Source of the DNA: an uncultured Granulicatella sp.
GTDB taxonomy: Bacteria; Bacillota; Bacilli; Lactobacillales; Aerococcaceae
DNA length: 64,000 nucleotides
Direction of reading: 5' to 3'
Assembly: GCF_963516875.1 (NCBI RefSeq)
Contig: NZ_CAUQCL010000008.1
Span: forward strand, 711-64,710
The notes beneath the pieces were generated by a model. It made no database searches. It had not been told where the DNA came from and saw nothing but the letters and a program-made list of their open reading frames with translations. The position numbers and the translations under genes were made by a program. Shown here one piece after another: positions 13,544-63,970 of this stretch. Every line of letters starts with the position of its first letter. Position 1 is the first letter of the stretch.

Positions 13544-13937
13544 AAAATACAACCGACTTTTGGAGTTGTAGCAATGGACGCCAGTAGCTTCGCTCTGCGA
13601 ATCTCTTGGCTAAAATTTGAGCCTATGGTCTCAAATTTCCCAGTAATAGAAACTGCTGCGACAGTTTCTATTACCAATGCTACTTGAAAAGTCGGTTGTA
13701 TTTTCATTTTTTATGCGGATAAAAGGTTATGTAACGGCACTAACAGATTTACTTTTTGGGGTCATTTACTAAAATTAAAATTCAACCGTCTTTTAGAGTT
13801 GTAGCAATGGACGCCAGTAGCTTCGCTCTGCGAATCTCTTGGCTAAAATTTGAGCCTATGGTCTCAAATTTCCCAGTAATAGAAACTGCTGCGACAGTTT
13901 CTATTACCAATGCTACTTGAAAAGTCGGTTGTATTTT
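13544..13937 (-). repeat. Two near-identical reverse-orientation copies of the multi-hairpin element (tandem duplication, period 233 bp)
   Basis: 13544-13704 and 13777-13937; arms AAAATACAACCGACTTTT/AAAAGTCGGTTGTATTTT. Confidence 0.9.
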
Positions 13938-14054
13938 CATTTTTTATGCGTATAAAAGGTTGTGTAACGGCATTAACAAGAAAACGTACAACCGTTACTA
14001 CAAAGCAAAGTCAATCTCTTATACGTACTCTAATAAACACCCGTCCATAAGAAA

Positions 14055-14190
14055 AGACTTTGCATAGTAGCACAAGTAATATAATCTGCAGAGTCAGATT
14101 ATATTACCGGAAAATTCGAGACCAAGGCTCGAATTTTAGCCATGAAACCGAAGGTTTGCTGGCGTCCGCCGCTACTATAAAGCAAAGTCT
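14055..14190 (+). repeat. Multi-hairpin element copy
   Basis: AGACTTTGC...AAATTCGAGACCAAGGCTCGAATTTTAGCCATGAAAC...GCTGGCGTCC...GCAAAGTCT. Confidence 0.9.
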
Positions 14191-14203
14191 ATTTCTAAAT
14201 AAA

Positions 14204-14917
14204 TTAACGTTTGTCGATCCTCTTCACCGCATAGTCTCCGACAAATTGAATCAAGAACACAAGAATTAAAATCGCAACCGTCGCCACGAAAATAATATCC
14301 TGCTTATTACGAGTAAAACCAATCATATATGCCAAGTTCCCTAATCCCCCAGCACCAATAACACCCGCAACAGCAGTAGAACCTACTAACGCAATCGTTG
14401 TTACCGTAATACCAGACACTAACGCAGGAAGTGATTCAGGAATTAACACCTTCGTAATAATCTGACGAGTCGTAGCACCCATTGATTCTGCCGCTTCTAC
14501 AACCCCAGAAGGAATCTCATTTAAAGAAATTGACACTAAACGAGCATAGAACGGAGCTGCACTAATCACTAAAGTTGGAATCGCACCCTTAGGTCCTAAA
14601 ATAGTTCCCATTAACGCTTTCGTAAAAGGCATTAATAAAGCCAGTAAAATAATAAATGGAACCGAACGGAAAATATTAATAATTCCAGAAAGGAATAAAT
14701 TCACCCATTTATTTTCTAAACTTCTACCAGGACTTGTTAAATATAAAAACAAACCCAGTGCTAAACCAATAATGAACACATAGAAAGTAGATAGAAAACT
14801 CATATAAACTGTTTCATTTGTCGCTTTAATAACTTCATTCCAATCTACATTTTTAAAACTCAACATCTCTTGGAATAATTCTGAAAAACTCGATTGAGCT
14901 AAAAACACATTAAACAT
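14204..14917 (-). CDS. metI: Methionine ABC transporter permease
   Basis: FRSVPFIIL, EAAESMGA, GAGGLG. Confidence 0.92.
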   Translation of the reverse strand: MFNVFLAQSSFSELFQEMLSFKNVDWNEVIKATNETVYMSFLSTFYVFIIGLALGLFLYLTSPGRSLENKWVNLFLSGIINIFRSVPFIILLALLMPFTKALMGTILGPKGAIPTLVISAAPFYARLVSISLNEIPSGVVEAAESMGATTRQIITKVLIPESLPALVSGITVTTIALVGSTAVAGVIGAGGLGNLAYMIGFTRNKQDIIFVATVAILILVFLIQFVGDYAVKRIDKR

Positions 14918-15935
14918 TTTCTAGTACCTCCACAATAATTTCTGCTTTTCTTAAGTAATCAATCACTTCTTCAGCTTTAGCAGATTCTTCTTCAATTAAA
15001 ATAATCATACTTCCAAGCACACCTTTTTGCGTTACATTTACATGCGCTTGTAAAATCGAAATTGAAACATCTAGTTTACGAATAACTTCTGATAAAATTC
15101 CTTCTGCTGTTGTATCCCCTAAATATTGAATACGAACAGCTACTCCCGGACGAAGTGAAGTTGATAAATGATCAAAAACATCTGCTAAATCTTGTTCAGA
15201 ACGTTCTTCACCAACAAATTGTTTTGTAATCGTTTGTTGAGGATTTTTAAATACTTCTAATACTTCCCCAGTTTCAACTACTCTACCTTGTTCCATTACA
15301 GCAACACGATGGCAAATTTGACGAACGACATGCATTTCATGCGTAATTAATACAATTGTTAACCCTAAACGTTTATTAATTTCTACTAATAAATTCAAAA
15401 TATCTTTTGTTGTTTTTGGATCTAACGCACTTGTTGCTTCATCACATAATAATACTTCTGGATCATTGGCTAATGCACGAGCAATCCCCACTCTTTGTTT
15501 TTGTCCACCAGATAACTGAGATGGATAAGATTTTTCTCTTCCTGTTAATCCAACAATTTCAATTAATTCGGCTACTTTTTTCTGGCGAATATCTTTTGCC
15601 ACTCCAGCAATTTCTAATGAAAATGCAATGTTTTCTTCAACTGTACGAGACCATAATAAGTTGAAATGTTGGAAAATCATCGCAATTTTACGACGCTCTT
15701 GTAATAATTCTTTTTTCTTTAATGTAGTAATATCTTTATCATTGACAAAAATATGACCAGTTGTAACAGATTCAAGACCATTTAACAAACGAATTAATGT
15801 ACTTTTACCTGCCCCTGAAAAACCGATAATACCAAAAATTTCGCCTTTTTTAATGTCTAATGAAACATCTTTGACTGCTTCAACTGTCCCTTGTTTGCCA
15901 TGATAAATTTTAGAAACTTCTTGTATTTTAATCAT
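14910..15935 (-). CDS. metN: Methionine ABC transporter ATPase
   Basis: [30 protein letters not shown]-terminal NIL-type domain. Confidence 0.93.
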   Translation of the reverse strand: MIKIQEVSKIYHGKQGTVEAVKDVSLDIKKGEIFGIIGFSGAGKSTLIRLLNGLESVTTGHIFVNDKDITTLKKKELLQERRKIAMIFQHFNLLWSRTVEENIAFSLEIAGVAKDIRQKKVAELIEIVGLTGREKSYPSQLSGGQKQRVGIARALANDPEVLLCDEATSALDPKTTKDILNLLVEINKRLGLTIVLITHEMHVVRQICHRVAVMEQGRVVETGEVLEVFKNPQQTITKQFVGEERSEQDLADVFDHLSTSLRPGVAVRIQYLGDTTAEGILSEVIRKLDVSISILQAHVNVTQKGVLGSMIILIEEESAKAEEVIDYLRKAEIIVEVLENV

Positions 15936-15954
15936 TATTCTTCTCCTTATACTC

Positions 15955-15992
15955 TAAAAAGGTGTGGCAAATAGCGCGTGCCACACCTTTTA
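15955..15992 (-). terminator. Intra-operon hairpin/terminator after metQ
   Basis: AAAAAGGTGTGGCA...TGCCACACCTTTTT. Confidence 0.65.
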
Positions 15993-16000
15993 TTTTATCA

Positions 16001-16858
16001 TTATTTTGCAGGAATTACAGATCCATCTGCATATTTATCAGAGATAAATTTACGGATTTCATCACTTTGTAATGCTTTGATTAAAGCTTTGATTTTATCA
16101 GAATCTTTATCTTTTGGTTTAACTGCTACTAAGTTTGCATATGGTGAACTTTCATCTTCTAATGCGATTGAATCTTTTTTAGGAGATAATTTTGCATCAA
16201 TTGCGAAGTTTGAGTTGATAATTACTGCATCTCCTTCGTTAGCTTCAAATGTTGAAACTAATAATTCAGGAGCAATTTCATTTTTAATTTGAATGTTCTT
16301 TTTGTTTTCAACGATATCGCTTAATTGAGCGTCAACTGGTTTAACTCCATCTTTTAATTTAATTAAACCTGCTTTTGTGAAGAATGATAAGAAACGACCA
16401 ACTTCAGCTGGGTTTGTTGAAGCATATACTGTTGCGTTTTCTGGTAAATCTGCTAGAGATTTATATTTTTTAGAATAAATAGCCATTGGCTCGATGTGAA
16501 CATTACCGATACTTACTAAATCTTCATTATGTTCTTTGTTGAATTTTTCTAAGTAAGGTGTATGTTGGAAGTAGTTAGCATCTGCATCTCCTCCGAATAC
16601 GATTTGGTTAGGTGTTACGTAGTCGTTTACGATATTGATTTGTAAATCATATCCATCTTTTTTAAGAATTGATTTAGCTGCTTCTAAAATTTCACCGTGT
16701 GGTGCAGGTGAAGCTACTACTGTAATTTTTTTGTCTTCCACTTTTGGAGCTGCTGTCGTTGCTGCATCTTTTGATTGAGATGCTCCGTTTCCACATGCTA
16801 CTAATGTTGTAGCTACTAATCCTAACGCTGCTGTTTTAATTAATTTTGAAATGTTCAT
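16001..16858 (-). CDS. metQ: MetQ/NlpA lipoprotein
   Basis: Lipobox LVAC; DYVTPN, DANYFQHTPYL. Confidence 0.92.
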   Translation of the reverse strand: MNISKLIKTAALGLVATTLVACGNGASQSKDAATTAAPKVEDKKITVVASPAPHGEILEAAKSILKKDGYDLQINIVNDYVTPNQIVFGGDADANYFQHTPYLEKFNKEHNEDLVSIGNVHIEPMAIYSKKYKSLADLPENATVYASTNPAEVGRFLSFFTKAGLIKLKDGVKPVDAQLSDIVENKKNIQIKNEIAPELLVSTFEANEGDAVIINSNFAIDAKLSPKKDSIALEDESSPYANLVAVKPKDKDSDKIKALIKALQSDEIRKFISDKYADGSVIPAK

Positions 16859-16961
16859 AAATAAATTCCCCTTTTCTTTTCCATTGATTAATGATGATTA
16901 ACGGGCGCGCTTTCCGTCAATCGTCGAATCAGATAATTGATGTTATAAGTATTTGAGCCAT

Positions 16962-17215
16962 AAAAAAACTCCACCTTAGTTTTTGACTAGAGGCGAAGGA
17001 TCGCGTTACCACTCTATTTTTAACAAACTTCACAGCTTGTTACTCTATAAGTACACTCTTGTATACTCTAGTACGGTATCGGGCACCATTCGCAGAAGCT
17101 TCATCACTTCTGTTGCTCCCAGACCATTTTCAATAAAGTTCCTGCATCCTTTTTCACCAACCGGACTCTCTTTTTACGTTCGCTTTTATTTACTTATCTG
17201 TTCATTGCATCAGTT
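16962..17215 (-). promoter_or_regulatory. T-box riboswitch (Met, AUG specifier)
   Basis: Minus strand AGAGTGGTAACGCG; GAAA-ATG-G specifier; terminator with U tract. Confidence 0.88.
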
Positions 17216-17367
17216 ATTTATCTGTTGTAGATAATATAATATATATTTAAGTTATTGTCAACGACTTTAGATAAATATTCAATATAGTTTTTAACTATTA
17301 CATTCCATAGCTTTTCTGCATGATAGGAAGTGATTTATGGTAAAATGAAAACAAAGGAGCTTTTAAT

Positions 17368-17565
17368 ATGAACAGAATTAAAACTTTTTCAAAATCAATA
17401 AAACAGCCAGAAAACATTACAGAAACAACACTATCAATAATTCATTCTATCGAAAATGAATTAGATTTTGCAGATAAATACGCTGAAGAACATTCCACAA
17501 GATATTCCCACAAAGAAATTTTTACCCGAGCAAAAGAAAGAATCAAGAATACTTCTTCGTTCTAA
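17368..17565 (+). CDS. Small protein; C-terminus resembles Phd/YefM-type antitoxin tails
   Basis: TGGTAAAAT extended -10, AAAGGAG RBS; ELDFADKYAEEHSTRYSHKEIF. Confidence 0.45.
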   Translation: MNRIKTFSKSIKQPENITETTLSIIHSIENELDFADKYAEEHSTRYSHKEIFTRAKERIKNTSSF

Positions 17566-17599
17566 AAGTCCCCTTATTTATTTACGAAAAACGGAGAAA

Positions 17600-17924
17600 G
17601 ACTTCCTCATAGTAGCATGCGTGAAAGCAGCCGAAACTCGGCTACTTTCACAAGGAAAAATCAAGACCCTAGGCTTGATTTTTAGGCATGAGACTCGTTT
17701 TAATGAGGCTACTGCCGTCCTATGCTACTATTTTGGAAGTCACTATCCTAAACATCGTCTCATCTCCTCACGTAAAACGGAGAAAGACTGTTCGCCGTTG
17801 CAAAAGTAATAGTAGCCATATCGGCTACTATTACACGGGAAATTTCGAGACTAAGGCTCGAAATTTAGCCATGAGACAGCATTAGCTGGCTGCTGGCGAC
17901 CTTGCAACAAAAGAACAGTCTTTC
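17600..17924 (+). repeat. Two multi-hairpin element copies downstream of smpB
   Basis: 17600-17741 and 17782-17924, each with (G/A)AGAC..GGCT hairpins and complementary outer arms. Confidence 0.9.
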
Positions 17925-17928
17925 GTAG

Positions 17929-18393
17929 TTAACGATAGTTTTTTAACTCTCTCTGTACATCTCGTTTTATATCTTTTTGTTTTAACGCTTCACGTTTATC
18001 ATAGTTTTTCTTACCTTTCGCAATTCCAATCAACAACTTGGCAACCCCATTTTTAATATAAACCTTCAATGGAACAACCGTATTTCCTGCCTGTCTTACC
18101 TCTTGCTCAAGCATTTGAATTTGTTTCTTATGCAATAACAACTTTCTCGTACGAAGCGGATCATGATTGAAAATATTCCCCTGCTCAAACGGACTAATGT
18201 GAACCCCTACTAAAAAAGCTTCTCCATTTTTAAAACTACAATAACCATCTTTCAAATTCATTCTAGCTTGACGAACCGATTTAATCTCCGTTCCCGTTAA
18301 TACTAAACCTGCTTCAATCGTATCTAAAATCGTATAATCATGATTCGCCTTACGATTTTGCGCTAAAACTTTATTATCTGTTCCTTTTGGCAT
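17929..18393 (-). CDS. smpB: SsrA-binding protein
   Basis: [38 protein letters not shown]. Confidence 0.97.
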
Positions 18394-18404
18394 CCGAATT
18401 CTCC

Positions 18405-20732: not shown

Positions 20733-20735
20733 CTC

Positions 20736-21455: not shown

Positions 21456-21544
21456 GTTGTTCACTCCTACCCTTAATTGATATTTTCCATATAGAAAAAC
21501 ACAATGTCTTAGAGATACTCCTTCAACATTGTGTTTAATCATTT

Positions 21545-21778
21545 TTATTTTGATGAAATGTACGCTAAGGCTACTGCTAAAATCATAAAGATTGCTCCTA
21601 ATCCGACAGTTACTCGAATTAAGAATGCTTCAAATCCACGTGCTTTTGTTTTTCCGAATAATTGCTCAGCACCGCCCGATAAGGAATTTGCTGCATTTGT
21701 TTTTGATGGTTGCATAGCTACAATAATAATTAGTAAGACACTAATAATAATCATCAATGTTAAAATTGTTTGATACAA
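21545..21778 (-). CDS. secG: Preprotein translocase subunit SecG
   Basis: LSGGAEQLFGKTKARG between two transmembrane helices. Confidence 0.95.
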   Translation of the reverse strand: MYQTILTLMIIISVLLIIIVAMQPSKTNAANSLSGGAEQLFGKTKARGFEAFLIRVTVGLGAIFMILAVALAYISSK

Positions 21779-22710: not shown

Positions 22711-22719
22711 GAGGAAGCC

Positions 22720-23202: not shown

Positions 23203-23203
23203 T

Positions 23204-24450: not shown

Positions 24451-24467
24451 TTTATGGTGATTTTGAT

Positions 24468-27049: not shown

Positions 27050-27050
27050 A

Positions 27051-28797: not shown

Positions 28798-29060
28798 TAA
28801 AAAGCCCGCTCTTTGGTTTTACTCACCAACCAAAGGACGAGTTCTCTCGTGTTACCACCTTTATTCATAGCATTTTCACAAATCCTATCTCTGTCAGTTA
28901 ATCTTTCTAACTGATAAGCTATATCGGGCTTTCCCGTAATCGTCTCATGATTCAACGATTAGCACTCAAAGGCCATCTTCAAAGTTTCAACTATTATCTC
29001 TTTTCACCCAACCGAGACTCTCTAAAATAGATTCACTTTTACTCTCCTTGTCACAGTGCG
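28798..29060 (-). promoter_or_regulatory. T-box riboswitch (Met, AUG specifier)
   Basis: Minus strand AAGGTGGTAACACG; GAAG-ATG-G specifier; terminator hairpin. Confidence 0.88.
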
Positions 29061-29193
29061 TTATGACTATGAAACTAGGATACCAACAAAACCTGTTCCA
29101 GTCAATTTCTAGATTTCTATCACTTGTTATAAGTTTTCTTTATATCTTTTTTCTTGCATCCCCCTCTAGTTTTCCCTACAATAAACTTACGAG

Positions 29194-31681: not shown

Positions 31682-31826
31682 AGACTTCCTATAGTAGTAT
31701 GCGTAAAAGTAGCCGCTTCTGTGGCTACTTTTACTAGGAAATTTTGAGACCTTAGGCTCAAAATTTAGCCATGAGACTTGCTTCGCAAGGCTGCTGGCGT
31801 CCTATACTACTATATTAAAGAAGTCT
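31682..31826 (+). repeat. Multi-hairpin element copy directly downstream of rpoC
   Basis: AGACTTC...AATTTTGAGACCTTAGGCTCAAAATTTAGCCATGAGAC...GGCTGCTGGCGTCC...GAAGTCT. Confidence 0.9.
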
Positions 31827-39194: not shown

Positions 39195-39537
39195 CTCTTC
39201 CACCCCTATATCATAATTTTATGAATAAATATTACAAATTTATTACATTATTAAATTTTCGTAACAAATGTTGCCTGAAAGTCATTTTAGAACAAAAAAA
39301 AACCAAAAGAATTTCTTTATCCCTTATTAAAAAGAGTGCTCATTCTTTTGTTTTCCCTTATATTCACGGGATTTCTGGACAATATTTCAGCATCCCGCAA
39401 GACTATAGTTACACTTATTGCGTTACATTATTTTAGCGTGAAATTGGCGATTTGTCAAGGTTTTGAAAGACTTTCTTTGCGTGTTTATAAGAAAGTGCAT
39501 ACATTTTTTCATTGATGTTTATACGTAATAAAAGCAA

Positions 39538-39613
39538 GCAGAAAAATGCTTTTTGTTTGCGTGGTCGCCAGTAGCCTCGCTTGCGAGTCTCTTGGCTAAA
39601 AAGATTTTTCTGC
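39538..39613 (-). repeat. Internally deleted reverse copy of the multi-hairpin element
   Basis: GGTCGCCAGTAGCCTCGCTTGCGAGTCTCTTGGCTAAAA within GCAGAAAAAT/ATTTTTCTGC arms. Confidence 0.8.
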
Positions 39614-39740
39614 TTTCTTTTATATTGTTTTTGCGTTTTTTTACTGACAATTTTTTGTTTCTGCACCAAGAGTTAGACATTTCCTGGATTTAGTTTTATC
39701 TAACTCGACAAAACTAGGCAATGTTATATAACTTCATAGT

Positions 39741-40967: not shown

Positions 40968-41127
40968 GCTAAAAGATGAAAGAAAAATTTTTGTTGCGAA
41001 AGTAATGGTAGCCACATTGGCTTCCATTACAGGTAAACTTTGAGACCGAGGCTCAAAGTTTAGCCATGAGACTCGCAGAGGCTGCTGGCGACCTCGCTAA
41101 CATAAAATTTTTCTTTCATCTTTTAGC
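40968..41127 (+). repeat. Multi-hairpin element copy with long outer arms
   Basis: GCTAAAAGATGAAAGAAAAATTT/AAATTTTTCTTTCATCTTTTAGC arms. Confidence 0.9.
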
Positions 41128-41200
41128 ATTTACGTGTATCATCTACATACATAAAAACGTCTAAATCTTTTCATCGATTTAGACGTTTTCCATCAATTCA

Positions 41201-44150: not shown

Positions 44151-44204
44151 CTTTACTCTCCTTTTGTATTTCTGTCAATGTTTTTTGAACACGTAATAAA
44201 AGAA

Positions 44205-44541
44205 AGAAGAAAAATGCTTTTTGTTTGCGAAGTCGCCAGTAGCCCCTATGGGTCTCTTGGCTAAAAATCGAGCCTTGCTTTCGATACAAAAAGATTTTTC
44301 TTCTTGCTTTTATATTATATTTGAGGTTTTTTACTGAAATGTATTAGTTCAAAAAATTGTTGCGCTACGGTTTACACTTCAGCTAAAAGATGAAAGAAAA
44401 TTTTTGTTGCGAAAGTAATGGAAGCCAGGCGTGGCTTCCATTATAGGTAAAATTTGAGACCAAGGCTCAAATTTTAGCCATGAGACTCGCAGAGGCTGCT
44501 GGCGACCTCGCTAACACAAAATTTTTCTTTCATCTTTTAGC
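44205..44541. repeat. Reverse partial copy plus forward full copy of the multi-hairpin element
   Basis: 44205-44304 resembles the 39538 copy; 44382-44541 is near-identical to the 40968 copy. Confidence 0.88.
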
Positions 44542-44598
44542 CTAACCGTAAAAAAGACTTCAAAACACTATTACGTTTCGAAGTCTATTCATCATTTT

Positions 44599-46248: not shown

Positions 46249-46350
46249 AAATCCCTGAAAAACACCATCGTTTTCCAGGAATCTATTGATCATTTCATGT
46301 TCAAATAAGCCCTAGTTTTGTTTATAGACAGGATGGTTACGAACTGTCTG
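46249..46350 (-). promoter_or_regulatory. preQ1 class I riboswitch with downstream terminator
   Basis: Minus strand AGACAG-TTCGTAACCATC-CTGTCT-ATAAACAAAACTAG aptamer (46311-46350), then CCTGGAAAAC/GTTTTTCAGG hairpin plus U tract. Confidence 0.85.
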
Positions 46351-46382
46351 ACAAATATTCTACCATAAATGAAACGGATTGA

Positions 46383-49007: not shown

Positions 49008-49469
49008 TTAGATTCCAGGTGCTTCATTTAAGTGTGCACGTAGCATCCAAATAATTTTTTCAATATCTCCTTTGAAGCCGATGCAGATATCTTGTGAAAC
49101 ATCATCGCCTTCTTCTCCAGCTGTTTCTAAACCTTCTTGGTATAACCCTCTTAAGTATTCATATCCTACTAATAAATGTCTTACCCATTCATCAATTGAA
49201 CGTTCGTAAGATGCAGGAATATCTTGAATTTTAGTGTTATCCGCAAATTCACGTAATGTTGAATATGGCGCTCCCCCAATAGTGATTAAGCGTTCTGAAA
49301 CTTCGTCTAATTGCTCGTTGATTTCATCCATTAATTTATCCATTGCTGGGTGTAATGTTAAAAATCCACGTCCACGCATATACCAGTGTACTTGGTGAAT
49401 AATTGCTGCTTGTTGACTTAAGTCAGCTACTAATTGATTTAATACTAATTTTGTTTTTTCTTTTGACAT
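49008..49469 (-). CDS. dps: Dps/Dpr ferritin-like protein
   Basis: HWYMRGRGFLTLH, LDEVSERL, IWML. Confidence 0.95.
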   Translation of the reverse strand: MSKEKTKLVLNQLVADLSQQAAIIHQVHWYMRGRGFLTLHPAMDKLMDEINEQLDEVSERLITIGGAPYSTLREFADNTKIQDIPASYERSIDEWVRHLLVGYEYLRGLYQEGLETAGEEGDDVSQDICIGFKGDIEKIIWMLRAHLNEAPGI

Positions 49470-49506
49470 TTGTCATTCCCCCTTTATGAATATAGTATAT
49501 CACAGA

Positions 49507-49521
49507 ATAGAATAATTCTAA
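49507..49521. promoter_or_regulatory. PerR-box-like operator upstream of dps
   Basis: ATAGAATAATTCTAA, a 7-1-7 Fur-family palindrome. Confidence 0.65.
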
Positions 49522-49568
49522 ACTAGAATGCTCATTTTTTTATATTTTTTTAAGAAAAAAGAGATAAA

Positions 49569-50014
49569 TGGATTTTTCGCTGTAGCCTTAACAATGAGAC
49601 TCGCAACAGCTAGACTGCTTGCGTCCTTCGCCACACCAAGACAAAGTCCAATCTCTTCACCATATTCTCGTATACACACGTCCAAATAAATGGACTTTTC
49701 GTAGTAGTAAACGTAAGAGTAACCGACAGAGTTACTCTTACTCGGGGAAAATCGAGACTTAGGCTCGATTTTTAGCTAAGAGACTCGCAAGGCGAGGCTA
49801 CTAGCGTCCCTTACTACTACAGACAAAGTCCAATCTCTTTCACTTCACTCTCATACACATACGTCCAAATAAATGGACTTTTCGCTGTAGCGTTAATACT
49901 AGAAGCCACACTGGCTTCTAGTACAGGAAAACTTGAGACCTTAGGCTCAAGTTTTAGCAATGAGACTCGCAACAGCGAGGCTGCTTGCGTCCTTCGCTAC
50001 AACAGAAAAGTCCA
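49569..50014 (+). repeat. Three tandem multi-hairpin element copies (first one deleted)
   Basis: 49569-49630, 49691-49832 and 49874-50014 with GGACTTT/AAAGTCC arms and conserved linkers. Confidence 0.9.
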
Positions 50015-50024
50015 ATTTAAGTCA

Positions 50025-51515
<1,491 letters not shown>

Positions 51516-51708
51516 CTAGAATCTGTAATTTTTAATAGCTAATATACCATGAATAGAATAAAATGCAAGTAGTTTTTCATTAGAAAACGGTTAATTTATG
51601 AACATTATTCATACTTTCTGTTAAAATTATTCTTATTTTCTAAATTTACACTCCAATATTTTTTCATTTCAATATCTGTGCTACAATATATACTAACAAA
51701 GGGGGATT

Positions 51709-52392
51709 ATGATGAGATAACTCATTTACATGGTGGCAAGTATAGCATTTTTAACAGCTTGTCACTCTCAGACAACAACAGAAAACAAACCAGAAACAAC
51801 TCAAGCAACTACTACGACTGAACAAACTACTGCAACTGCTAAAAAAAGTAATGGTCAAGCAGATTTATCTTTAGGAATTCAAATGGTCGTGAACAAAAAA
51901 CACAAACTACCTGCTGACTATAACCCAGGAGAAAATCCACTCGCAGGAGAGAAAATTAGAGAACTGATTAAAAAAATGCAAGAGTTAGGTTTTAGCATTA
52001 GTAATCAATATAGCGGATTTCGTTCCTATGACTATCAAACTCAACTGTATCAAAACTACGTAAATAAAGATGGAAAGGAAGCAGCAGACACTTATTCTGC
52101 TCGCCCAGGATATAGTGAACATCAAACGGGGCTTGCTTTTGATATTTTAAATGGGGCCGGTGGATTATTAGGAGAAAATCCTCAAGATGAAAAAGCTATT
52201 GAATGGTTGCATAGTCATGCTCATGAATATGGCTTTATTGTAAGATTCCAAGAAGGAAAAGAAGCCATTACAGGTTATCAAGCAGAAGCGTGGCATTTAA
52301 GATATGTTGGAGATATCGCAGAAAAAATCTACACATCAAAACAAACATTAGAAGAATATTTTGGAGTAGAAGGCGGCAATTACGCCGATTGA
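51709..52392 (+). CDS. M15B (LdcB/DacB/VanY-like) carboxypeptidase lipoprotein; in-frame TAA at codon 4
   Basis: SEHQTGLAFD and EAWH motifs, lipobox LTAC. The RBS-linked ATG at 51709 is followed by ATG AGA TAA, in frame with the ORF from 51730. Confidence 0.8.
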
Positions 52393-52440
52393 TAATGAAA
52401 AATCCGTTAATCGGGAATGATTAACGGATTTTTCATATCT

Positions 52441-53223
52441 TTAATAAATCTGACAGTCAGTTACAATGGAATGTTGTTTTTCTTTTAATGACTCCAAGCG
52501 TTCTTGGTATAAACTTGGAAATGTTGTCAGTCTTGCTCTTAATGGGGCAATTTTTAATGCAGAAACTAAATAGTCTACAAACAATAAACAATTATTTCTC
52601 CACATTGTATACAATTTAAATTGTGTTTTTCTAAATTTATAAAAAGTTACCGGCATGCATTGTACCATAAAATACGCATACATCTCTTCTAACTTTTCAC
52701 TGACAGGATTAAACGAACAAATATCATCTGGTGGAGACCAAGTGAAAGATTCCTTCAATATTTTTTCCAAACGATTTTTAATTAATTGAATTTGTTCATC
52801 GGTTACTTCTAAACTATAAATGTATAGCGTTTTTTGGTAATGTCTCTTACAAAATTTAAAATAATCTTCTCTTGGTGCTTTTAATAGGACACCTTCACCT
52901 CTAGCTCCATTTAAAATACAAGCTAGTTCATCATAATTTCCATAAGAATACACATAACCTTCAATACAAATATCTACATGCCCTAACACTCCCATGCCGA
53001 TTTCCATTGCATGGACAATAATTTCTAACTTTGATTTTGCTTCCGGAATTGGTCTAGCTAGACTAGTATCCACTTGAGATAAGTCCATTAATGGTAATAA
53101 ACGAATCCCTTTTTCTACAATTCTTTCTCCCAATTTTACCATATTGAAAGAGATACACCTCGATTCATTTAAGATATCGTTGTTATTATAACATAAGAAA
53201 AGCCATTTCGTTACAAAAATCAA
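52441..53223 (-). CDS. Hypothetical protein, possibly permuted papain-like fold (start uncertain)
   Basis: GHVD...SYGNYD followed by a distal NNC motif. Confidence 0.55.
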   Translation of the reverse strand: MIFVTKWLFLCYNNNDILNESRCISFNMVKLGERIVEKGIRLLPLMDLSQVDTSLARPIPEAKSKLEIIVHAMEIGMGVLGHVDICIEGYVYSYGNYDELACILNGARGEGVLLKAPREDYFKFCKRHYQKTLYIYSLEVTDEQIQLIKNRLEKILKESFTWSPPDDICSFNPVSEKLEEMYAYFMVQCMPVTFYKFRKTQFKLYTMWRNNCLLFVDYLVSALKIAPLRARLTTFPSLYQERLESLKEKQHSIVTDCQIY

Positions 53224-53362
53224 AAAACTCCGACAAAACTTGTCGGAGAAAAAAAGGATAGAGTTTATTTACTTTGGGAAGTAAATATATTCTTTTGGAA
53301 TACCTAAAGTATACACTTGATTTGTGAAGATTTTATGACGAAACTATGCTATTTTCATATTT

Positions 53363-54616
53363 TTACCAACCTTGTGCAGCATGTAATCCTGCAACATATC
53401 CTGTTACAAAGGCTGATGTAATATTATATCCACCGGTATAGCCATGAATATCTAATAATTCTCCACAGAAATATACTCCTTGAGTGATTTTTGATTCTAA
53501 AGTTTTTGGATCCACTTCTTTTAATTGAACGCCCCCACCTGTCACAAAACCTTTTTCAATTGGTAGACTTCCATTAACTGTAAATCTAAAATCTTGAATA
53601 ACATTTAGCAATTGTTGGGTTTCTTGTTCAGTCATTTTCCCAATGACTTTTTGTGAAGATAGTCCAATTTGTTCAATTAAAAATTCCGCATATCGTTCAG
53701 GCATCCACTCTTTTAACGGTGTCTTTATAGTCTTTTGTGGATTATTTTCTTTCCATTCTTGCCATTTTTCTAATAATTCCTGTTTGGTTAAATCAGGTTG
53801 TATATTTAGTGATATCGTAACTTCTTTAATATTGTCTTTTTGTTGAACTTGATGAACAAAGCTTGAGCAACGTAATACAGCTGGACCACTGATCCCAAAA
53901 TGCGTAAAAATCATATCCATTTGATGCGTCACAACTGCTTTTCCTTTTTGATTCAATACACTTAAAGCAACATTTTTTAAAGAAAGTGCTCGTAATACGC
54001 CTTCTTTAATGAAAGTTTCCTGACTTGTTAGAGGGACTTCTGTGGCAAATAATGGAGTAATGGTATGCCCTACATTCCGAGCGATTCCATACCCATCTCC
54101 AGTGGATCCTGTTTTTGGATAAGATTTTCCACCTAGCGCTAAAATCACCGCATCTCCTTCGATTCTTTCACCAGTATCTAATTCGACTGCTGAAAAGTGT
54201 TCTTCTTCTAGTCGAATCGCTTTGACTTTTACATTTGTTCTTACTTGTATGCCTAATCGTTTAATTTCTTCGATGAAGGTATTCAAGATTGTTTTAGCGG
54301 AATCGGATACTGGAAACATTCTTCCGTGGTCTTCTTCTTTTAATTGGACTCCTCGGTTTTGGAAAAATTCAATAATGTCTTGGTTATCGAATTGGGAAAA
54401 GGCGCTATGTAAGAAGCGTCCGTTTCCTGGGATATGTTTAATGATTTCGTCTCTTGAACGAATGTTTGTTACGTTGCAACGGGTTCCGCCTGTTAATAAT
54501 AATTTTCGTCCTAAGTTTGGATTTTTTTCTAGTAGAATTACTTCTGCTCCTGCTAATGCTGCACTAACGCTTGCCATTAATCCGCTCGTTCCTCCACCTA
54601 CTACAATGACTTTCAT
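53363..54616 (-). CDS. HI0933/YtfP-family flavoprotein
   Basis: GGGTSG, GGTRCNVTN, GSTGDG, TGGYNIT. Confidence 0.92.
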   Translation of the reverse strand: MKVIVVGGGTSGLMASVSAALAGAEVILLEKNPNLGRKLLLTGGTRCNVTNIRSRDEIIKHIPGNGRFLHSAFSQFDNQDIIEFFQNRGVQLKEEDHGRMFPVSDSAKTILNTFIEEIKRLGIQVRTNVKVKAIRLEEEHFSAVELDTGERIEGDAVILALGGKSYPKTGSTGDGYGIARNVGHTITPLFATEVPLTSQETFIKEGVLRALSLKNVALSVLNQKGKAVVTHQMDMIFTHFGISGPAVLRCSSFVHQVQQKDNIKEVTISLNIQPDLTKQELLEKWQEWKENNPQKTIKTPLKEWMPERYAEFLIEQIGLSSQKVIGKMTEQETQQLLNVIQDFRFTVNGSLPIEKGFVTGGGVQLKEVDPKTLESKITQGVYFCGELLDIHGYTGGYNITSAFVTGYVAGLHAAQGW

Positions 54617-54686
54617 AAATTCTCCTTTGTATCTTTATTCGTAATTTTACTATAAGGGAAATGATACTTGACCGTCAAACTATAAG

Positions 54687-55088
54687 GTGAATAAAGAGAA
54701 AATACTTCTCAATATAGTAACAAAGGACGGCAGCAACCTTGTCTCGCAAGTCTCATACCTAAAATTCGAGCCTCGGTCTCGAATTTTCCTTACTATGGGA
54801 AGTATTTTCTCTTTATTCATTACGCCCTCTCATATATATACCCCTAACAAAAAAAGACTTGCCGTTGTAGCATTCACATTATTCTATCCGCTACTACTAT
54901 AGCTAAAGTCTTATTCATTACGCCCATTCATTTATATGATCCACAACCTGAAAAAAACTTGCCATAGTAGTATTAGTCCAATAAGTCAAATATTGGCTTA
55001 TTGGACAGGAAAATTTGAGACCTAGGCTCAAATTTTAGGCATGAGACCGCAGGGCTGCTGCCGTCCTCTACTACTATAGCTAAAGTTT
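54687..55088. repeat. Cluster of multi-hairpin elements (reverse copy, arms-only remnant, forward copy)
   Basis: 54687-54820 reverse; about 54855-54910 arms only; 54956-55088 forward. Confidence 0.88.
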
Positions 55089-55104
55089 TATTCATAAAAA
55101 TTTT

Positions 55105-56229
55105 TTATTTTACAAAATCCACCAAAAATCCATAGCCTTTTTCTTCCATCTCTGCCAACGGAATAAAACGAATAGCGGCACTATTAATGCAGAAACGTAA
55201 TCCACCTTTGTCTTGAGGTCCATCATCAAAAACATGCCCTAAATGAGAATCCGCAATACGACTACGAACTTCAATTCGTTTCATATTAAAACTTGTATCT
55301 TCCTTATAAGTCACTACTTCTGAAGAAATAGGTTTTGTAAAACTTGGCCATCCACAACCAGAATCAAACTTATCTTTTGAAGAGAAAAGTGGTTCCCCCG
55401 TTACTACATCAACATAAATTCCTGGTTCATGATTGTCCCAATACTCATTTGAAAAAGCCATTTCTGTACGATTTTCTCTCGTAACTGCATATTGTTCTTT
55501 TGTTAGTGTCTTTTTCAACGTATCTTCATCTGGGATTGGATATAAACTAGGATCAATGACTGGATCATTTGCTTTATTCACATCAATATGACAATAGCCA
55601 TTTGGATGTTTCTTTAAATAATCTTGATGGTAATCTTCTGCAACAACAAAGTTTCTAAGATTTTCTCTTTCAATCGCTACTTTTTTGCCTAATTGTTCTT
55701 CTTTTTCTGCTACTACCTGCTCAATAATTTCTTTATCATCATCATTTTGATAATAAATTCCTGTTCGATATTGACGACCTACATCATTACCTTGTTTGTT
55801 GACTGATAGTGGATCAATCACTCTAAAGTAATATAATAAAATTTCTCGAAGAGATACAACTTTTGCATCATAAGTAATTTTTACTGTTTCTGCATGATCT
55901 GTATCATGTATTAATTGATAATTTGTAGTTTCTACTTTTCCATTTGCATACCCACTAACTGCATCTTCTACTCCATTAATTCTTGAGAAATATTCTTCTA
56001 ATCCCCAAAAACAGCCGCCTGCTAGATAGATTTCCTTCAACTCTTTTTCTCCCTTATTTTCTGATTTATTAACCTTTTGCTGGTTAATAATAGAACTAAC
56101 CTTTTTCTCAATTGGATTTCCGTTTCCTAGATTAGTTAACGGAGAAGAATAAACAAAATAATAAGAAGCAATCAGCAATACAATTAACGTTACGACTCCA
56201 ATCAATATTTTTTTATCCATTATACCCAC
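55105..56229 (-). CDS. msrAB: Membrane-anchored MsrAB methionine sulfoxide reductase
   Basis: N-terminal TM helix; GGCFWG; GCGWPSF; RFCINS. Confidence 0.95.
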
Positions 56230-56296
56230 TCCCTAGATTTTACTGAGATATTTTGAATCTATTAATTATTCATGTATTCTACTAAATATTAAGGAT

Positions 56297-56623
56297 AAAA
56301 TACTTTTAGGTATAGTAACAAAGGACGGTAGCAGCCTTGCTGTTGCAAGTCTCATACCTAAAATTCGAGCCATAGTCTCAAATTTTCCTTCCCATAGTAA
56401 CCACTCCATGGTTACTATGGGCCTTGTTACTATGAAAAGTATTTTCTCTTTATTCACTTGGACGATTCTAACAAAAACTAGAAAAGACTTGTCGTTGTAG
56501 TATTAGTCCAATAAGTCAGATATGGCTTATTGGACAGGAAAATTTGAGACCTAGGCTCAAATTTTAGCAATGAGACAGCACTGCTGGCTGCTTGCGTCCT
56601 CCTACTACAACAGCTAAAGTCTT
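56297..56623. repeat. Reverse plus forward pair of multi-hairpin elements inside the ccdA-tlpA-msrAB cluster
   Basis: 56297-56445 reverse, 56484-56623 forward; paralogous to the 54687-55088 cluster. Confidence 0.88.
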
Positions 56624-56637
56624 ATTCATAAATAAAT

Positions 56638-57180
56638 TTACATCTTATCAAGATACTTCTGTATATCCTCATTTGCTAAATGCCCCGGATGTACTTGCAC
56701 TAATTCTCCATTTTGATTAATAAAAACAGATGTTGGATATCCAATGACTCCTACTTGTTTAAAGAAATCTGGAGTTTCTGCCATTAATACAGGTAAATTT
56801 TTATACTCTAATCCTGAAAACCATTCTTTAAAATCTTCAGCTTTTTTCTCACGATTCACACCAGGTGCTACCACGCTTAAAATGACTGTATCCTCTGAAT
56901 GATTGGCTGCCAACTCATCCACTTCAGGTAGTCCTGCTAAACATGTTGGACACCATGAAGCCCAAACTTTGATATACACTTTTTTACCTTTATAATCTGA
57001 TAAATTAACTGTTTTTCCATCAAAAGTTTTAAATGAAGCTTCTAATACTTTTTTTGTAGCACTTTTTTCTTTTGAAACAGTTTCAGTAGAAGGCTTCGTT
57101 GTTTTTGCTTGCTGATTACCCATCGGTTGACAAGCTCCTAATAATAAACTAGCTCCAATACATACATATTTCCATTTCAT
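56638..57180 (-). CDS. TlpA/Etrx-like thioredoxin lipoprotein
   Basis: Lipobox LGAC; WASWCPTC; GYPT. Confidence 0.9.
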   Translation of the reverse strand: MKWKYVCIGASLLLGACQPMGNQQAKTTKPSTETVSKEKSATKKVLEASFKTFDGKTVNLSDYKGKKVYIKVWASWCPTCLAGLPEVDELAANHSEDTVILSVVAPGVNREKKAEDFKEWFSGLEYKNLPVLMAETPDFFKQVGVIGYPTSVFINQNGELVQVHPGHLANEDIQKYLDKM

Positions 57181-57197
57181 TTTTCATTCTCCTATCT

Positions 57198-57890: not shown

Positions 57891-58008
57891 ATATACACCT
57901 CTTCTTAATAATAGATACCTTCATTATAATCATTTATCCCCAAAGAAAACATAAATATGCTTACACAAAAAAATGAAGTAGAATCTCTACTTCATCTTTC
58001 GATCAATC

Positions 58009-59595: not shown

Positions 59596-59596
59596 A

Positions 59597-60685
59597 TTAT
59601 AACTCCATTTTAAAATTTAAAAAGGCATCATTGTAGTTAGAAATCCATTCTGTTCCAAGATATTCATAATGCTCTAAACTTTCAATAACTTCTTGTGATG
59701 GATAAAAAGTCTCATCTGAAACCACTTCTTCATCTAACAACTCTTTGGCAGCTTCATTTGGTGTAGCATAACCTACAAATACTGCATTTCTAGCTGCATT
59801 TTCAGGACGAAGCATAAAGTTAATAAACGCATACGCTCCTTCAATATTTTCCGCATTATATGATAACGCAAAGTTATCCGTCCAAACAGCACTTCCATCT
59901 TGTGGTAAAATATATTTCACCGCTGGATTCGTTTCTGCTACAGCAGCTGCATCTCCTGAATAACCAATTCCAATTGGCGCTTCTTCTAATTTCATCATTG
60001 TTTTAATCTCTTCATTTAACACAGCACGTACATTTGGATTTAATGCTTTAATTTTTAATTCTGCTTCTTTTAATTGCGCTGCATCTTTTGAATTGAGTGA
60101 ATATCCTAATGACTGCAATGCTAATCCCATTGTTTCACGATTTCCATCTAGTAATAAAATTTTATTACGAAATTCGCTATTCCATAAATCATTCCAAGTT
60201 GTAATACTTTCTGGATCGATATATTTTGTATTCACCATAATTCCAACAGTCCCCCAGAAATAAGGAACTGTATATTGATTTCCAGGATCCACTGGGCTAT
60301 TTAATAAAAATGGTGAAATATTTTCTAATCCTTGAATTTTAGAATGATCCAATGGCTGTAATAAATTTTGATTTACTAATTTTGTAATACTCGATTCACT
60401 TGGAAATACGATATCATAACGAGTACCACCTTGTTTTAATTTTGCTTCCATTGCATCATTTGAATCAAATGTTTCATAGATCACTTGAGTATTCGTTTCC
60501 GCTTCAAATTCTTTTATTAATTCTGGATCAATATAATTTCCCCAGTTAAATAAATAGAGTTGCTGTTTTTCACTTGAAGCTGTCTCATCAGCTGCAATTT
60601 CTTTTACTTGAATATATTTTTTCACTCCTAATAGTAATAGGATAACGACAATAATCGATAGGATTAAAGATACTAATTTTTTCAT
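59597..60685 (-). CDS. potD: PotD-like polyamine ABC substrate-binding protein
   Basis: FNWGNYIDP, TFDSND, PYFWGTVG, AYAFINFML; probable start MKKLVS. Confidence 0.85.
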   Translation of the reverse strand: MKKLVSLILSIIVVILLLLGVKKYIQVKEIAADETASSEKQQLYLFNWGNYIDPELIKEFEAETNTQVIYETFDSNDAMEAKLKQGGTRYDIVFPSESSITKLVNQNLLQPLDHSKIQGLENISPFLLNSPVDPGNQYTVPYFWGTVGIMVNTKYIDPESITTWNDLWNSEFRNKILLLDGNRETMGLALQSLGYSLNSKDAAQLKEAELKIKALNPNVRAVLNEEIKTMMKLEEAPIGIGYSGDAAAVAETNPAVKYILPQDGSAVWTDNFALSYNAENIEGAYAFINFMLRPENAARNAVFVGYATPNEAAKELLDEEVVSDETFYPSQEVIESLEHYEYLGTEWISNYNDAFLNFKMEL

Positions 60686-60861
60686 GAAAAACCTCATTTC
60701 TCTCATATTCTGTTACAATAACTTGATAGTAATAAAATATCGCTTTCACGTCAACTAGTACGGTATAAAAATATAAAAACATCCATTTAAACAGAAGTCT
60801 TACTTAAACGGATGCTCATTGTTGAATATTTTAGTTAAAAAAATTGTCACATTCAACTAAT

Positions 60862-61391
60862 CTACCCCTTAAAACCTCCTTGTTTTGTTTCAATAATTTT
60901 CATGGCTGAGCGTATAATATGAAACTCATCAATTAACTTTCCAATTAACTCATAGTTCCGTTGAGATAACTTACCCGATAAGATTTTATGAGAATATTGA
61001 TGAAAAGACTCTAGATTTCTTTAATACTCATTAACATCTCCTTTGCATCTTTATGGCGATATTTGTGAGAAAGATGTGCTAGTTCTTCAGTAAATAACGC
61101 AATATTATTTTCATGAATTGTTATTTTCTTACCTTCATCTACAATATCATTCGCTTCATAACAAGTTAAAAATTTTTGTTCAATGGTATTACAAATAAAT
61201 ACGACACCTAATTGTGAAATATATTTTTTCTCTTCTGGATGCTGTTCTTCATTTTTATTATACTCTACTAAACTTCCAATTTGTCTACTCACCCATTTTG
61301 GAAGTTATTCATTGCTTACTTCAAAACTCTCCTGTGCTCTTTGAGCAAAATGATCTGTCCATGTATAATTCGGTCCAAATGAAAGGCCCAT
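60862..61391 (-). pseudogene. Disrupted hypothetical gene (nonsense plus frameshift)
   Basis: AAAGGAG RBS, MGLSFGPNYTWTDHFAQRAQESFEVSNE-TAA-LPKWVSRQ..., in frame with the 61011-61292 ORF; a shifted frame continues to a stop at 60862. Confidence 0.6.
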
Positions 61392-61654
61392 AACATTACT
61401 CCTTTACATCCATAAATTTCATGTCACGAGAACTTATTCCCTTACATTATTTCTCCTAACTCTTATTCCCCCCTATATATTTCTATTCAGCAAACTTTCC
61501 TCCTCTCATCTCCCATCAATCATTTTGATTAGAAAAAACATTTGTGAATAAATTCTCAATTAGTTTTATCAATACTCTTTCTGATTTTCAATAGAGAATT
61601 CAAAATAAAACAAAAACTCTCACTTGCCAGGTAAACAAGTGAGAGATAGGATGG

Positions 61655-63346
61655 CTACATTTCGTCTGGAGATTCTACTCCTAAAATTGCAAGACCTTGT
61701 TTTAAGATAACAGCTGTTGCTTCCACTAATGCTAAACGAGCATTTAGCCCTTCATCTTCTTGTAAGATACGGCTGTTTGCATAATATTTATTGAAGGCTT
61801 GCGCTAGAGAAATTACATATTTAGAAATCACAGAAGGTTCAAATTTGCTTTCTGCATATTTCACAATATTTGGATAATTTTCAATTTGTTTTAATACTTC
61901 CCATGCATAGTCATCTTCTAATTCTAATGCTTGAGATAAATCAACTGAAACTCCTGCTTTTCTTAAAATACTCATTGCACGAGCACGAGTATATTGAACA
62001 TAAGGTCCAGTTTCTCCTTCAAATTGAACAACTTCTTCTAAATTGAAGTCGAAACTATTTGTACGATCATTTTTCAAATCGTGGAAGATTACCGCACCGA
62101 CCCCAACTTGTTTTGCAACTTGTTCTTTGTTAGGTAAGTTTGGATTTTTAGCTTCAATTTGTTTTAAAGCTAATTCTACAGCTTCGCTTAATACTTCTTC
62201 TAATAAGACAATTTTACCTTTACGTGTTGATAATTTTTTACCACCTAAAGTAATTAAACCAAATCCGATATGGATCATATTTTCTTGCCAATCACGACCC
62301 ATTTCATTTAATACAGCTTTTAATTGTTTGAAGTGGTGTGCTTGTTCATTCCCTACAACATAAATGTTTTTAGCGAAATCATAAGTTGCTTTACGGTAAT
62401 GTGCTGCTGCTAAGTCACGAGTCATATATAATGTAGCACCATCTGATTTTTTAATTAATGCAGGTGGTAAATCATATTTATCTAAGTGAACAACAGTTGC
62501 TCCACGGTCAATTGTAGTAATTCCATTTTTTTCTAAATATTCTACAATTGGATCCATTTTATCATTATAGAAAGCTTCACCATTATAAGAATCAAATGTA
62601 ATCCCTAATACATCATAAATACGGTTGAATTCTTTTAAGGATTCAGATTTAAACCAATTCCATAATTCTTCGGCTTCAGCATCGCCATCTTCTAATTTTT
62701 TAAACCACGCACGTCCTTCATCTTCTAAAGTACTATCGTTTTCTGCTTCATCATGGAATTTAACGTATAAACGTAATAATTCTGCGATTGGTTCATTTTC
62801 AACGGCTTCTTTTGTTCCCCATTTTTTATAAGCAACGATTAATTTACCGAATTGTGTTCCCCAGTCTCCTAAATGGTTCACTTTAATTGGGTTATAGCCA
62901 ACTTTTTTCTCTAAGTTAACGATAGCATTCCCGATTACTGTTGAACGTAAGTGTCCCATTGACATTGGTTTTGCAATATTTGGACTTGACATGTCAACTA
63001 TAACATTACGTCCTTGACCAAAATCAAAGTTACCATATTCTTCTCTTTGTTCTAAAACAGTGTGTAATGTTTCATCTGCAAATTTACCTTTTGAAAGGAA
63101 GAAGTTTGCATAAGGTCCCATTGCTACTGCTTGACTAATATGTTCATCTGCAACTGCTTCAACGATTTCTTGTGCAATGGCTTGAGGTGCTTTACGCAAT
63201 ACTTTTGCAAGTGAAAATGCTGGGAAAGCTAAATCTCCTTGTTCTGCATATTTTGGAACTTCAATCATTTTATAAATTTCTTCAAACGATAAATGTTCGC
63301 TAATTGTTTTATGAATTTGTTCTGCGACCATTTTTTTGTAATCCAT
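61655..63346 (-). CDS. argS: Arginine--tRNA ligase
   Basis: SSPNIAKPMSMGHLRS, NHLGDWGTQFG, KKLSTRKG; start MDYKK after AAGGAG. Confidence 0.96.
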   Translation of the reverse strand: MDYKKMVAEQIHKTISEHLSFEEIYKMIEVPKYAEQGDLAFPAFSLAKVLRKAPQAIAQEIVEAVADEHISQAVAMGPYANFFLSKGKFADETLHTVLEQREEYGNFDFGQGRNVIVDMSSPNIAKPMSMGHLRSTVIGNAIVNLEKKVGYNPIKVNHLGDWGTQFGKLIVAYKKWGTKEAVENEPIAELLRLYVKFHDEAENDSTLEDEGRAWFKKLEDGDAEAEELWNWFKSESLKEFNRIYDVLGITFDSYNGEAFYNDKMDPIVEYLEKNGITTIDRGATVVHLDKYDLPPALIKKSDGATLYMTRDLAAAHYRKATYDFAKNIYVVGNEQAHHFKQLKAVLNEMGRDWQENMIHIGFGLITLGGKKLSTRKGKIVLLEEVLSEAVELALKQIEAKNPNLPNKEQVAKQVGVGAVIFHDLKNDRTNSFDFNLEEVVQFEGETGPYVQYTRARAMSILRKAGVSVDLSQALELEDDYAWEVLKQIENYPNIVKYAESKFEPSVISKYVISLAQAFNKYYANSRILQEDEGLNARLALVEATAVILKQGLAILGVESPDEM

Positions 63347-63371
63347 TTTGACACTCCTTTTGTTTGTATAA

Positions 63372-63605
63372 ATAAAAAAGACCCTAATCAAGCAACCTTG
63401 ACTAGAGACGAGATAACCCGTGGTACCACTCTTATTGTTTAAAATATTAAACCACTTTAAACTTTTTTAACGGTAAGCGACCGGATTACTCTACTATCTT
63501 CGAATAATCATTTCCAAAGTGCGTTTCATTTACTTCATCATGACTGGCTTCCACCACCCCAGCTCGCTAAAACAGATATCCATAAACTACTCTCTTCTTC
63601 ATAAA
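63372..63605 (-). promoter_or_regulatory. T-box riboswitch (Arg, CGC specifier)
   Basis: Minus strand AGAGTGGTACCACG; GAAA-CGC-A specifier; terminator. Confidence 0.85.
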
Positions 63606-63691
63606 TGTTTATTATTTATACGACGATTATAACAAGCGACAGAAAATTTGTCTAGTAATTTTATAAGAAACTTTATAACCCCAAAAAGAAA

Positions 63692-63970
63692 AGACTTTAC
63701 ATAGTACAGGAAAAATTGAGACCTTAGGCTCAATTTTTAGGCATGAAACAGCAAAGCTGTTTGCTGCCGTCCCCTATTCAAAGAATAAATTATTAACGTA
63801 CCCTCATAAATAACCGTTCAATAAGAAAAGACTTTGCATAGTAGCATGAGTAATATAATCTGCAAAGTCAGATTATATTACAGGAAATTTCGAGACCAAG
63901 GCTCGAAATTTAGCAATGAGACAGCCATAGCTGGCTGCTTGCGTCCTTCTGCTACTATAAAGCAAAGTCT
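63692..63970 (+). repeat. Two multi-hairpin element copies (first partial)
   Basis: 63692-63775 and 63829-63970; the second shares arms and hairpin 1 with the 14055 copy. Confidence 0.88.

Follow-up and report, generated by a model that had tools for sequence, protein, structure and literature searches.

What is the multi-stem element that recurs between the genes of an uncultured Granulicatella sp., and is its fold read on RNA or on DNA? The window analysed here is a stretch of 64,000 nucleotides (contig NZ_CAUQCL010000008.1, positions 711 to 64,710; G000:C8:711-64710) from a genome of 1.79 Mb with 33% GC. An original prediction, made from the letters of the window, listed 19 copies of the element and two remnants, and proposed an undescribed family of structured RNA or single-stranded DNA (ssDNA) repeats. 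We found that a dispersed repeat family with a conserved nested fold is real. We lean, with moderate confidence, towards a non-autonomous element of DNA that is recognised by its fold on ssDNA, as in REP and REPIN repeats, and whose family was shaped by spread, by arm copying and by carriage as transposon cargo.

A dispersed repeat and its conserved nested fold

The repeat unit is a non-coding, branched palindrome of about 150 bp. Read along the strand on which it was originally drawn (the forward strand below), an outer stem with an internal loop leads into hairpin 1, which is variable, then a stem of 3-4 bp (NGGA/TCCN), hairpin 2 with its A.G mismatch, a 4-bp stem (P4), a 2x2 loop and hairpin 3, giving four helices and two three-way junctions. 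Every matched switch that had been claimed for P4, GGA/TCC, hairpin 2 and GAGAC/GGCT was found in the sequence, as was a stem type, GGTA/TACC at 56297, that had been overlooked. All 19 listed copies were present, 14 at full length and 5 internally deleted (39538, 44205, 49569, 54687 and 63692); of the 19, the minus strand carries six (13544, 13777, 39538, 44205, 54687 and 56297). At the remnant proposed near 54855 the outer arms alone survive (E 0.0075), bringing the window to 14 full copies, 5 with an internal deletion and 1 of arms only. The remnant proposed near 10395 was unsupported, with no match at E 10 and filters off.

Genome-wide extraction, which had been suggested as a check, was performed with a profile built from 13 window copies and resulted in 198 matches, with 0 in the reversed genome. 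A refined profile gave 195 non-overlapping matches; about 126 copies are full length, and the family makes up 1.4% of the bases of the genome. Median pairwise identity was 66% and nearest-neighbour identity 80% (60 copies against all). Of 127 copies examined, 107 were parsed for P4, which paired in 105 and came in six types; the outer six pairs of hairpin 2 were Watson-Crick in 727/738 cells, and the A.G mismatch of hairpin 2 was retained in 122 of 123 copies. Across 35 diverse cores, which were chosen for the purpose and scored against a structure derived from the same sequences, 98.5% of cells paired (shuffles, 76.9%) and 19 of 24 pairs had changed on both sides, well above shuffles and slid controls, in a covariation count made without phylogenetic correction. 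The copy at 14055 had a fold z-score of -10 when folded as DNA. Almost no single-stranded residues are conserved in the repeat, and a 35-nt flank motif stands 5' of 20 of 124 copies.

Copies favour the ends of genes. With gene positions taken from a simple open reading frame caller, a gene end lay at the 3' side of 148 of the 179 copies having genes on both sides; convergent genes flanked 54 copies, against 65 of 634 spacers in the background, and divergent genes flanked 5, against 116 of 634. The strand originally drawn is mostly not the one transcribed: within 60 nt of a stop codon, the mRNA reads the element in reverse in 101 copies and forward in 14. Orientation tracks transcription, because 18 of the 101 reverse-read copies follow lagging-strand genes. 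Copies past stop codons probably act as terminators or 3' stabilisers as well. Forward copies that precede a gene lie upstream of its promoter, as judged by eye. The copies in the window, with gene names taken from NCBIfam, are as follows.

13544..13704, minus strand: full copy, upstream of the promoter of a sucrose phosphotransferase system gene; near-identical tandem partner of the copy at 13777
13771..13943, minus strand: full copy, tandem duplicate
14050..14196, plus strand: full copy, 7 nt past the metI stop, the mRNA carrying the reversed strand; hairpin 3 loop C(GAA)G; 35-nt flank motif ahead at about 14015-14049
17600..17741, plus strand: full copy, second of the tandem following smpB
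17782..17927, plus strand: full copy, abutting the smpB stop
31682..31826, plus strand: full copy, 11 nt past the rpoC stop
39528..39623, minus strand: internally deleted copy, hairpins 1 and 2 gone, upstream of rpoB; full in the related genome G123
40968..41138, plus strand: full copy with long arms, past the terminator of a histidine-triad gene
44196..44313, minus strand: internally deleted copy, immediately upstream of a -35 box; relatives have a full copy
44382..44550, plus strand: full copy with long arms, past a terminator hairpin
49559..49657, plus strand: internally deleted copy, third in the guaB tandem array
49691..49832, plus strand: full copy, second in the guaB array
49874..50020, plus strand: full copy, abutting the guaB stop; the locus holds 1-3 copies in 11 relatives
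54688..54819, minus strand: copy without hairpin 1, adjoining a predicted -35 box (54678) and upstream of it
54854..54912, plus strand: remnant, outer arms only
54954..55089, plus strand: full copy, past msrAB
56297..56445, minus strand: full copy of type GGTA/TACC, upstream of msrAB
56484..56623, plus strand: full copy, past a thioredoxin-like gene; inverted pair with 56297, the pair missing in G123
63692..63775, plus strand: copy without hairpin 1 and 3' arm, upstream of the argS T-box
63829..63970, plus strand: full copy

A promoter and terminator scan of 49300-57000 gave no useful excess over shuffles.

We compared sites with two related genomes over 209 (G123) and 232 (G124) orthologous spacers, about 400 kb each. 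Orthologous sites were held in common at 14 of 16 (G123) and 11 of 18 (G124), and where they differed the differences were mostly deletions. Tandem copy number varies (1-3 at guaB), and losses are mainly deletions between stems. The copies now stay put, duplicate locally in tandem and decay by inter-stem deletions. Elsewhere in this genome, a PD-(D/E)XK (PF12784) gene lies between two like-oriented copies (G000:C12:26615-27502, L314).

Distribution was assessed using a 66-position covariance model of the core. The core was present in every genome (19 of 19) of one genus, identified as Streptococcus through named matches, and in one sister-genus genome (G022) as a variant with 24 matches; it was absent from the remaining 129 of the 150 genomes in the order, from 149 other genomes of the phylum, and from plasmid, phage and viral collections. 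The G022 variant (L552, L755-L775) has a pair of GAGAC/GGCTC hairpins, lacks hairpin 1 and shows two types of end; it is homogeneous and appears recently amplified. Within its own genus, 14 genomes carry from 39 to at least 118 copies, one bin carries 4 and 29 carry none. Among the best 80 of 124 loci, the exact core pattern occurred in Granulicatella (including G. elegans) and mitis-group Streptococcus, so that the genome analysed here is likely one of the G. elegans group. Nine streptococci are low-copy, with 3-7 matches each, mainly at operon junctions, and the others have at least 34. Low-copy sense copies precede dnaK, purE, glyS, groEL, purF and yhbY and antisense copies lie at infB-rbfA, these genes being recognised from their N-termini. 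A dnaK-start pattern, which itself requires the end of the core, gave 119 loci, 96 of them distinct and with the core.

DNA or RNA as the substrate of the fold

Given the choice between structured RNA and ssDNA, which the original prediction had offered, the ssDNA half fits best and the RNA half is weaker here, with no wobble bias. Among 1x1 mismatches in 124 copies of this genome we counted 31 G.T and 33 A.C, in 20 and 28 distinct contexts, respectively. In 34 orthologous pairs from 18 loci, 127 stem pairs were altered on both sides and still paired and 111 were altered on one side, with about 7 doubles expected if changes were independent; part of the double changes may be replacement by paralogous copies. 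The covariation is confirmed, and in view of these mismatch and substitution counts it need not imply stepwise selection on RNA.

The loops point the same way. Hairpin 3 carries C(GNA)G loops on the forward and reverse strands in 28 versus 5 copies in this genome, 33 versus 0 at dnaK, and 12 versus 0 in the low-copy streptococci; 308 control terminators contained one such loop and preferred GNRA and UNCG. A tandem-GA hairpin that itself covaries stands upstream of the core in 13 of 31 copies from low-copy streptococci, and only on the forward strand; it was found in 20 of 24 copies at purE, 1 of 105 at dnaK and 2 of 195 in this genome. GNA triloops and the tandem-GA hairpin are, we assume, DNA-type motifs, and a literature search on that status found no paper with the term.

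We favour a DNA-level fold with arm copying because G-U bias is lacking, C(GNA)G triloops recur and substitutions are mostly double. The bare element likely spread as non-autonomous DNA, its fold being recognised on ssDNA, and amplification likely came before related species split. Paired changes would likely arise in one step, by copying from arm to arm or by conversion between copies, and the unpaired signature would be kept by selection or by the amplification step.

Several observations weigh against this account. At grpE-dnaK, where the forward strand is in the mRNA, G.T occurs in 8 contexts and A.C in none (21 and 0 among 96 dnaK copies). The wobble controls are small and weak (tRNA, 6 versus 2; T-box, 4 versus 1), and copies share descent, so counts are not independent. 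In most copies the GNA strand is the template strand of the gene and lies opposite the lagging-strand template, a placement that contradicts the strand rule of IS200/IS605 elements. U-tracts past the stem are modest, with 6 or more U in 17 of 79. This lineage showed no clean gain of a bare copy, and no HUH or other transposase flanked by bare core was found. Y1 genes across the genus showed no correlation with the repeat: PF01797 occurred in 20 of 44 genus genomes, and the 28 loci scanned yielded a decayed IS200 remnant beside one copy, in a search confined to the genus. The IS200-type tnpA at window 4411-4879 (minus strand), the sole Y1 transposase of the genome, was rejected as mobiliser, being frameshifted, with its own ends and no adjoining copy.

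The dnaK wobble bias fits a different order of events, to which we give a minor share of belief: a structured cis-acting RNA came first, acting in intercistronic processing or translation in streptococci and as a terminator or stabiliser here, and passive spread followed. Sense copies stand 40-64 nt before dnaK (in at least 6 of the 9 low-copy genomes), purE (7), glyS (4), groEL and purF. Palmer and Burne are said to have described regulation in the S. mutans grpE-dnaK spacer, a possible site of the core, in 2015. A relative of the repeat, the small RNA SSRC8 of S. pyogenes, was detected on Northern blots and mapped by rapid amplification of cDNA ends, with partial homologues, covering the stretch that the repeat matches, listed for 14 streptococci (Tesorero et al. 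2013, in the accessible portions of PMC3675131). Such an origin is at odds with the reverse orientation at infB-rbfA (4 genomes) and in most copies of this genome, with the lack of any copy before dnaK, groEL or yhbY in this genome, and with the missing wobble bias, rare RNA-type tetraloops and frequent deletions seen here.

We regard as extremely unlikely a reading in which the repeat is a ribozyme- or retron-like RNA, catalytic or reverse-transcribed, that reaches gene ends by retroposition. Outer arms around variable and conserved hairpins recall the layout of retrons, as a resemblance only; Rfam yielded no ribozyme match up to E 1, and neither the near-absence of conserved single-stranded residues nor the lack of strand bias suits such an RNA.

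Transposons that carry or enter the repeat

The core is carried by an IS1182-type MITE (miniature inverted-repeat transposable element) within the S. parasanguinis group and by the right end of an ISLre2 transposon in one genome, G029. In the S. parasanguinis group (at least 34 copies) the core sits inside a unit of about 270 bp. Direct repeats (score 14+) flanked 35 of 111 distinct copies of this type and 1 of 300 mismatched pairs; each is a local terminator hairpin, with duplications of 20-34 bp. At nrdF-alaS, three genomes are filled, four carry the hairpin singly, one holds a different insertion, and in 22 the neighbouring genes differ. The consensus end of the MITE equals the left end of an IS1182-family element from the same group at 18 of 18 bases, IS1182-like ends were found at 80 and 75 of 125 ends of the S. 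parasanguinis form, and the IS1182 elements of the group likewise duplicate hairpins. IS1182 was rejected as the source of the core, which was present in 0 of 30 IS1182 loci; the core is therefore cargo of the MITE. Hairpin 3 loops flip freely in MITE copies (27 versus 26), and terminator loops at nrdF-alaS (L502-L509) are found in either orientation from one relative to the next, which points to template switching.

The MITE raises the question of whether the copies of this genome are worn IS1182 MITEs, stripped of their ends and of duplicated terminators, which we think quite improbable. In its favour, the core-bearing MITE sits at terminators, and a relic at G000:C5:74542 matches the IS1182 right end at 15 of 16 bases on the expected side (0.1 expected). 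It is the one credible relic of IS1182-like terminal inverted repeats among 195 copies of this genome. Flanking direct repeats were found at 0 of 55 solitary copies, so target duplication is absent here, and most copies directly follow a stop codon with no terminator between. There was no DUF772 match in this genome, and the related transposases of the genus have other ends. Low-copy streptococcal copies are mostly without IS1182 ends, and the 30 IS1182 loci without the core count against this origin as well. A distant IS1182-like element with other ends occurs in G144, G152 and G124 (L713-L726), with 12 copies in G124; one copy in G144 lies inside the repeat at hairpin 1, and streptococci carry, near alaS, a short element whose ends are similar.

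G029 has three copies within the right end of the ISLre2 transposon. The fourth is solitary, with a nearly identical core, unrelated flanks and a compensatory stem change. ISLre2 was rejected as the source, since the core is missing from 35 other ISLre2 loci. PF06782 had no match in 5 high-copy genomes, and the same search matched no control genome either.

An IS110 lineage inserts in the repeat. An element with an intact IS110 transposase gene (G000:C22:8369-9541) splits one copy between its short stem and hairpin 2, and G123 has an uninterrupted copy at this locus. Across 21 loci of this lineage, the same repeat junction was used at 10 of 10 distinct left and 9 of 9 distinct right IS110 ends. 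The non-coding end contains a pair of 8-nt segments, one matching the left flank and the other the complement of the right flank, and both change along with their flanks; the left guide-like segment was exact in 6 of 10, had one mismatch in 3 and was poor in 1. The first segment was also exact, by eye, in 15 of 20 IS110 relatives at non-repeat targets. The motif CAGGAAAA.TTGA[AG] occurs 12 times in the genome, all within repeats. By comparison with the guide function of IS621 (PMC11208160, in its accessible portions), the lineage likely finds the repeat by a bridge-RNA guide, although the segments, with that for the right flank first, run opposite to the order in IS621 and are not cleanly opened in the predicted fold. 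IS110 was rejected as the origin of the repeat: relatives at 55-70% identity use other sites, and an intact empty copy exists. At three G123 loci (L443, L453 and L458), IS110 connects left and right arms that come from two different repeats, through rearrangement between IS copies or misassembly.

Known families and significance

A search of the window against Rfam gave only T-boxes at the cut-off. Four T-box leaders lie on the minus strand (10130-10327, 28830-29063, 63401-63611 and, below cut-off, 16986-17214). A PreQ1 riboswitch-like aptamer at 46306-46352 (minus strand), upstream of queF-queC, is also sub-cut-off (23 bits, E 0.0077) and nearly invariant across 12 relatives. Further minus-strand features are a long open frame leaving the window at 1-4013, apparently a repetitive surface protein, and a spacer at 60706-61655 with a gene of about 170 codons, stop-broken here and apparently intact in two relatives.

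The claim of novelty stands in part: the family is not wholly undescribed, as the core resembles positions ~145-211 of Rfam RF02616 (SSRC8_2) below cut-off, and no prior description as a repeat family was found. Window copies scored 28-45 bits against this 281-position model (cut-off 72), matching positions 144-211 only, with E down to 2.5e-9; S. parasanguinis-type copies reach 72-93 bits, exceeding the cut-off. The core is the middle of SSRC8, hairpins 2 and 3, and the SSRC8 consensus has two similar flanking hairpins, as the MITE copy does; window copies differ in lacking its 5' and 3' parts, and the Rfam fold differs outside the two hairpins. SSRC8 was described as a single small RNA and is not called a repeat in the accessible text of PMC3675131. 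We found no matching family in the accessible parts of PMC2267715, PMC2864571 and PMC11109978, nor in PMC5737381, PMC8632094 or PMC6006769 (the last without mention of Streptococcus); subscription papers, including those on enterococcal EFAR/EPAR, and the PMC11109978 supplement, any of which may describe the family, were outside the scope of this search.

Among named repeats, REP, BIME and REPIN are similar in kind: hundreds of extragenic imperfect palindromes near gene ends, with inverted pairs, tandem arrays and a conserved mismatch, as found here. REP-type repeats are also targets of IS110 elements (IS621, ISPpu9 and ISPpu10; accessible parts of PMC11208160 and bioRxiv 10.64898/2026.03.19.712850). 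This repeat is four times longer, has two three-way junctions, and no RAYT was found; the words GTAG and CGTC, of which one tags the foot of a 20-40 bp hairpin in REP repeats, occur inside the element rather than as a terminal tag, and CGY peaks 14-15 nt before the arm (17 of 58 copies). IS1182 is enriched between convergent genes (PMC9208149, in part), and window copies differ from IS1182-family MITEs in lacking ends and duplications. SPRITE, BOX and RUP (Croucher et al. 2011) are likewise short repeats between streptococcal genes, close to 3' ends, with enrichment between convergent genes, and are now dormant. As had been judged earlier, the repeat appears not to be SPRITE, which the accessible descriptions (PMC3049150, PMC3875467 and PMC3184786) set apart from a four-helix fold of about 150 bp: SPRITE has one 18-bp duplex and a U-rich tract in about 105 bp at 28% GC, with 30 pneumococcal copies and near absence elsewhere (PMC3049150), and S. 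parasanguinis HSISM1 has only 2-3 matches (PMC3875467, Table S9). The ScRE and sanguinis-hairpin motifs (Weinberg 2010) showed no GAGAC/GGCTC core, by eye, in the alignment excerpts. The family is apparently unnamed and of a familiar REP- or MITE-like kind; its fold is unusually complex, and it is associated with transposons in three ways.

A bolder reading, which we offer tentatively and consider unlikely, would make the repeat a genus-spanning ssDNA recognition cassette, moved by some enzyme, captured by two unrelated DDE families, drawing IS110 guide reprogramming, and domesticated as cis-RNA before streptococcal dnaK, groEL and pur genes, so that one fold would serve as mobile DNA and regulatory RNA. 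More directly, SSRC8 and the spacers grpE-dnaK, purD-purE and glyQ-glyS become members of a single repeat family. Whole terminators are duplicated by IS1182 elements and by their MITE, and the IS110 lineage offers, in the Lactobacillales, a natural series of guide changes tracking variants of a structured multi-copy target, which bears directly on sequence-plus-structure targeting. For RNA-motif screens the family is a caution: near-perfect covariation without G-U pairs can stem from arm copying at the level of DNA.

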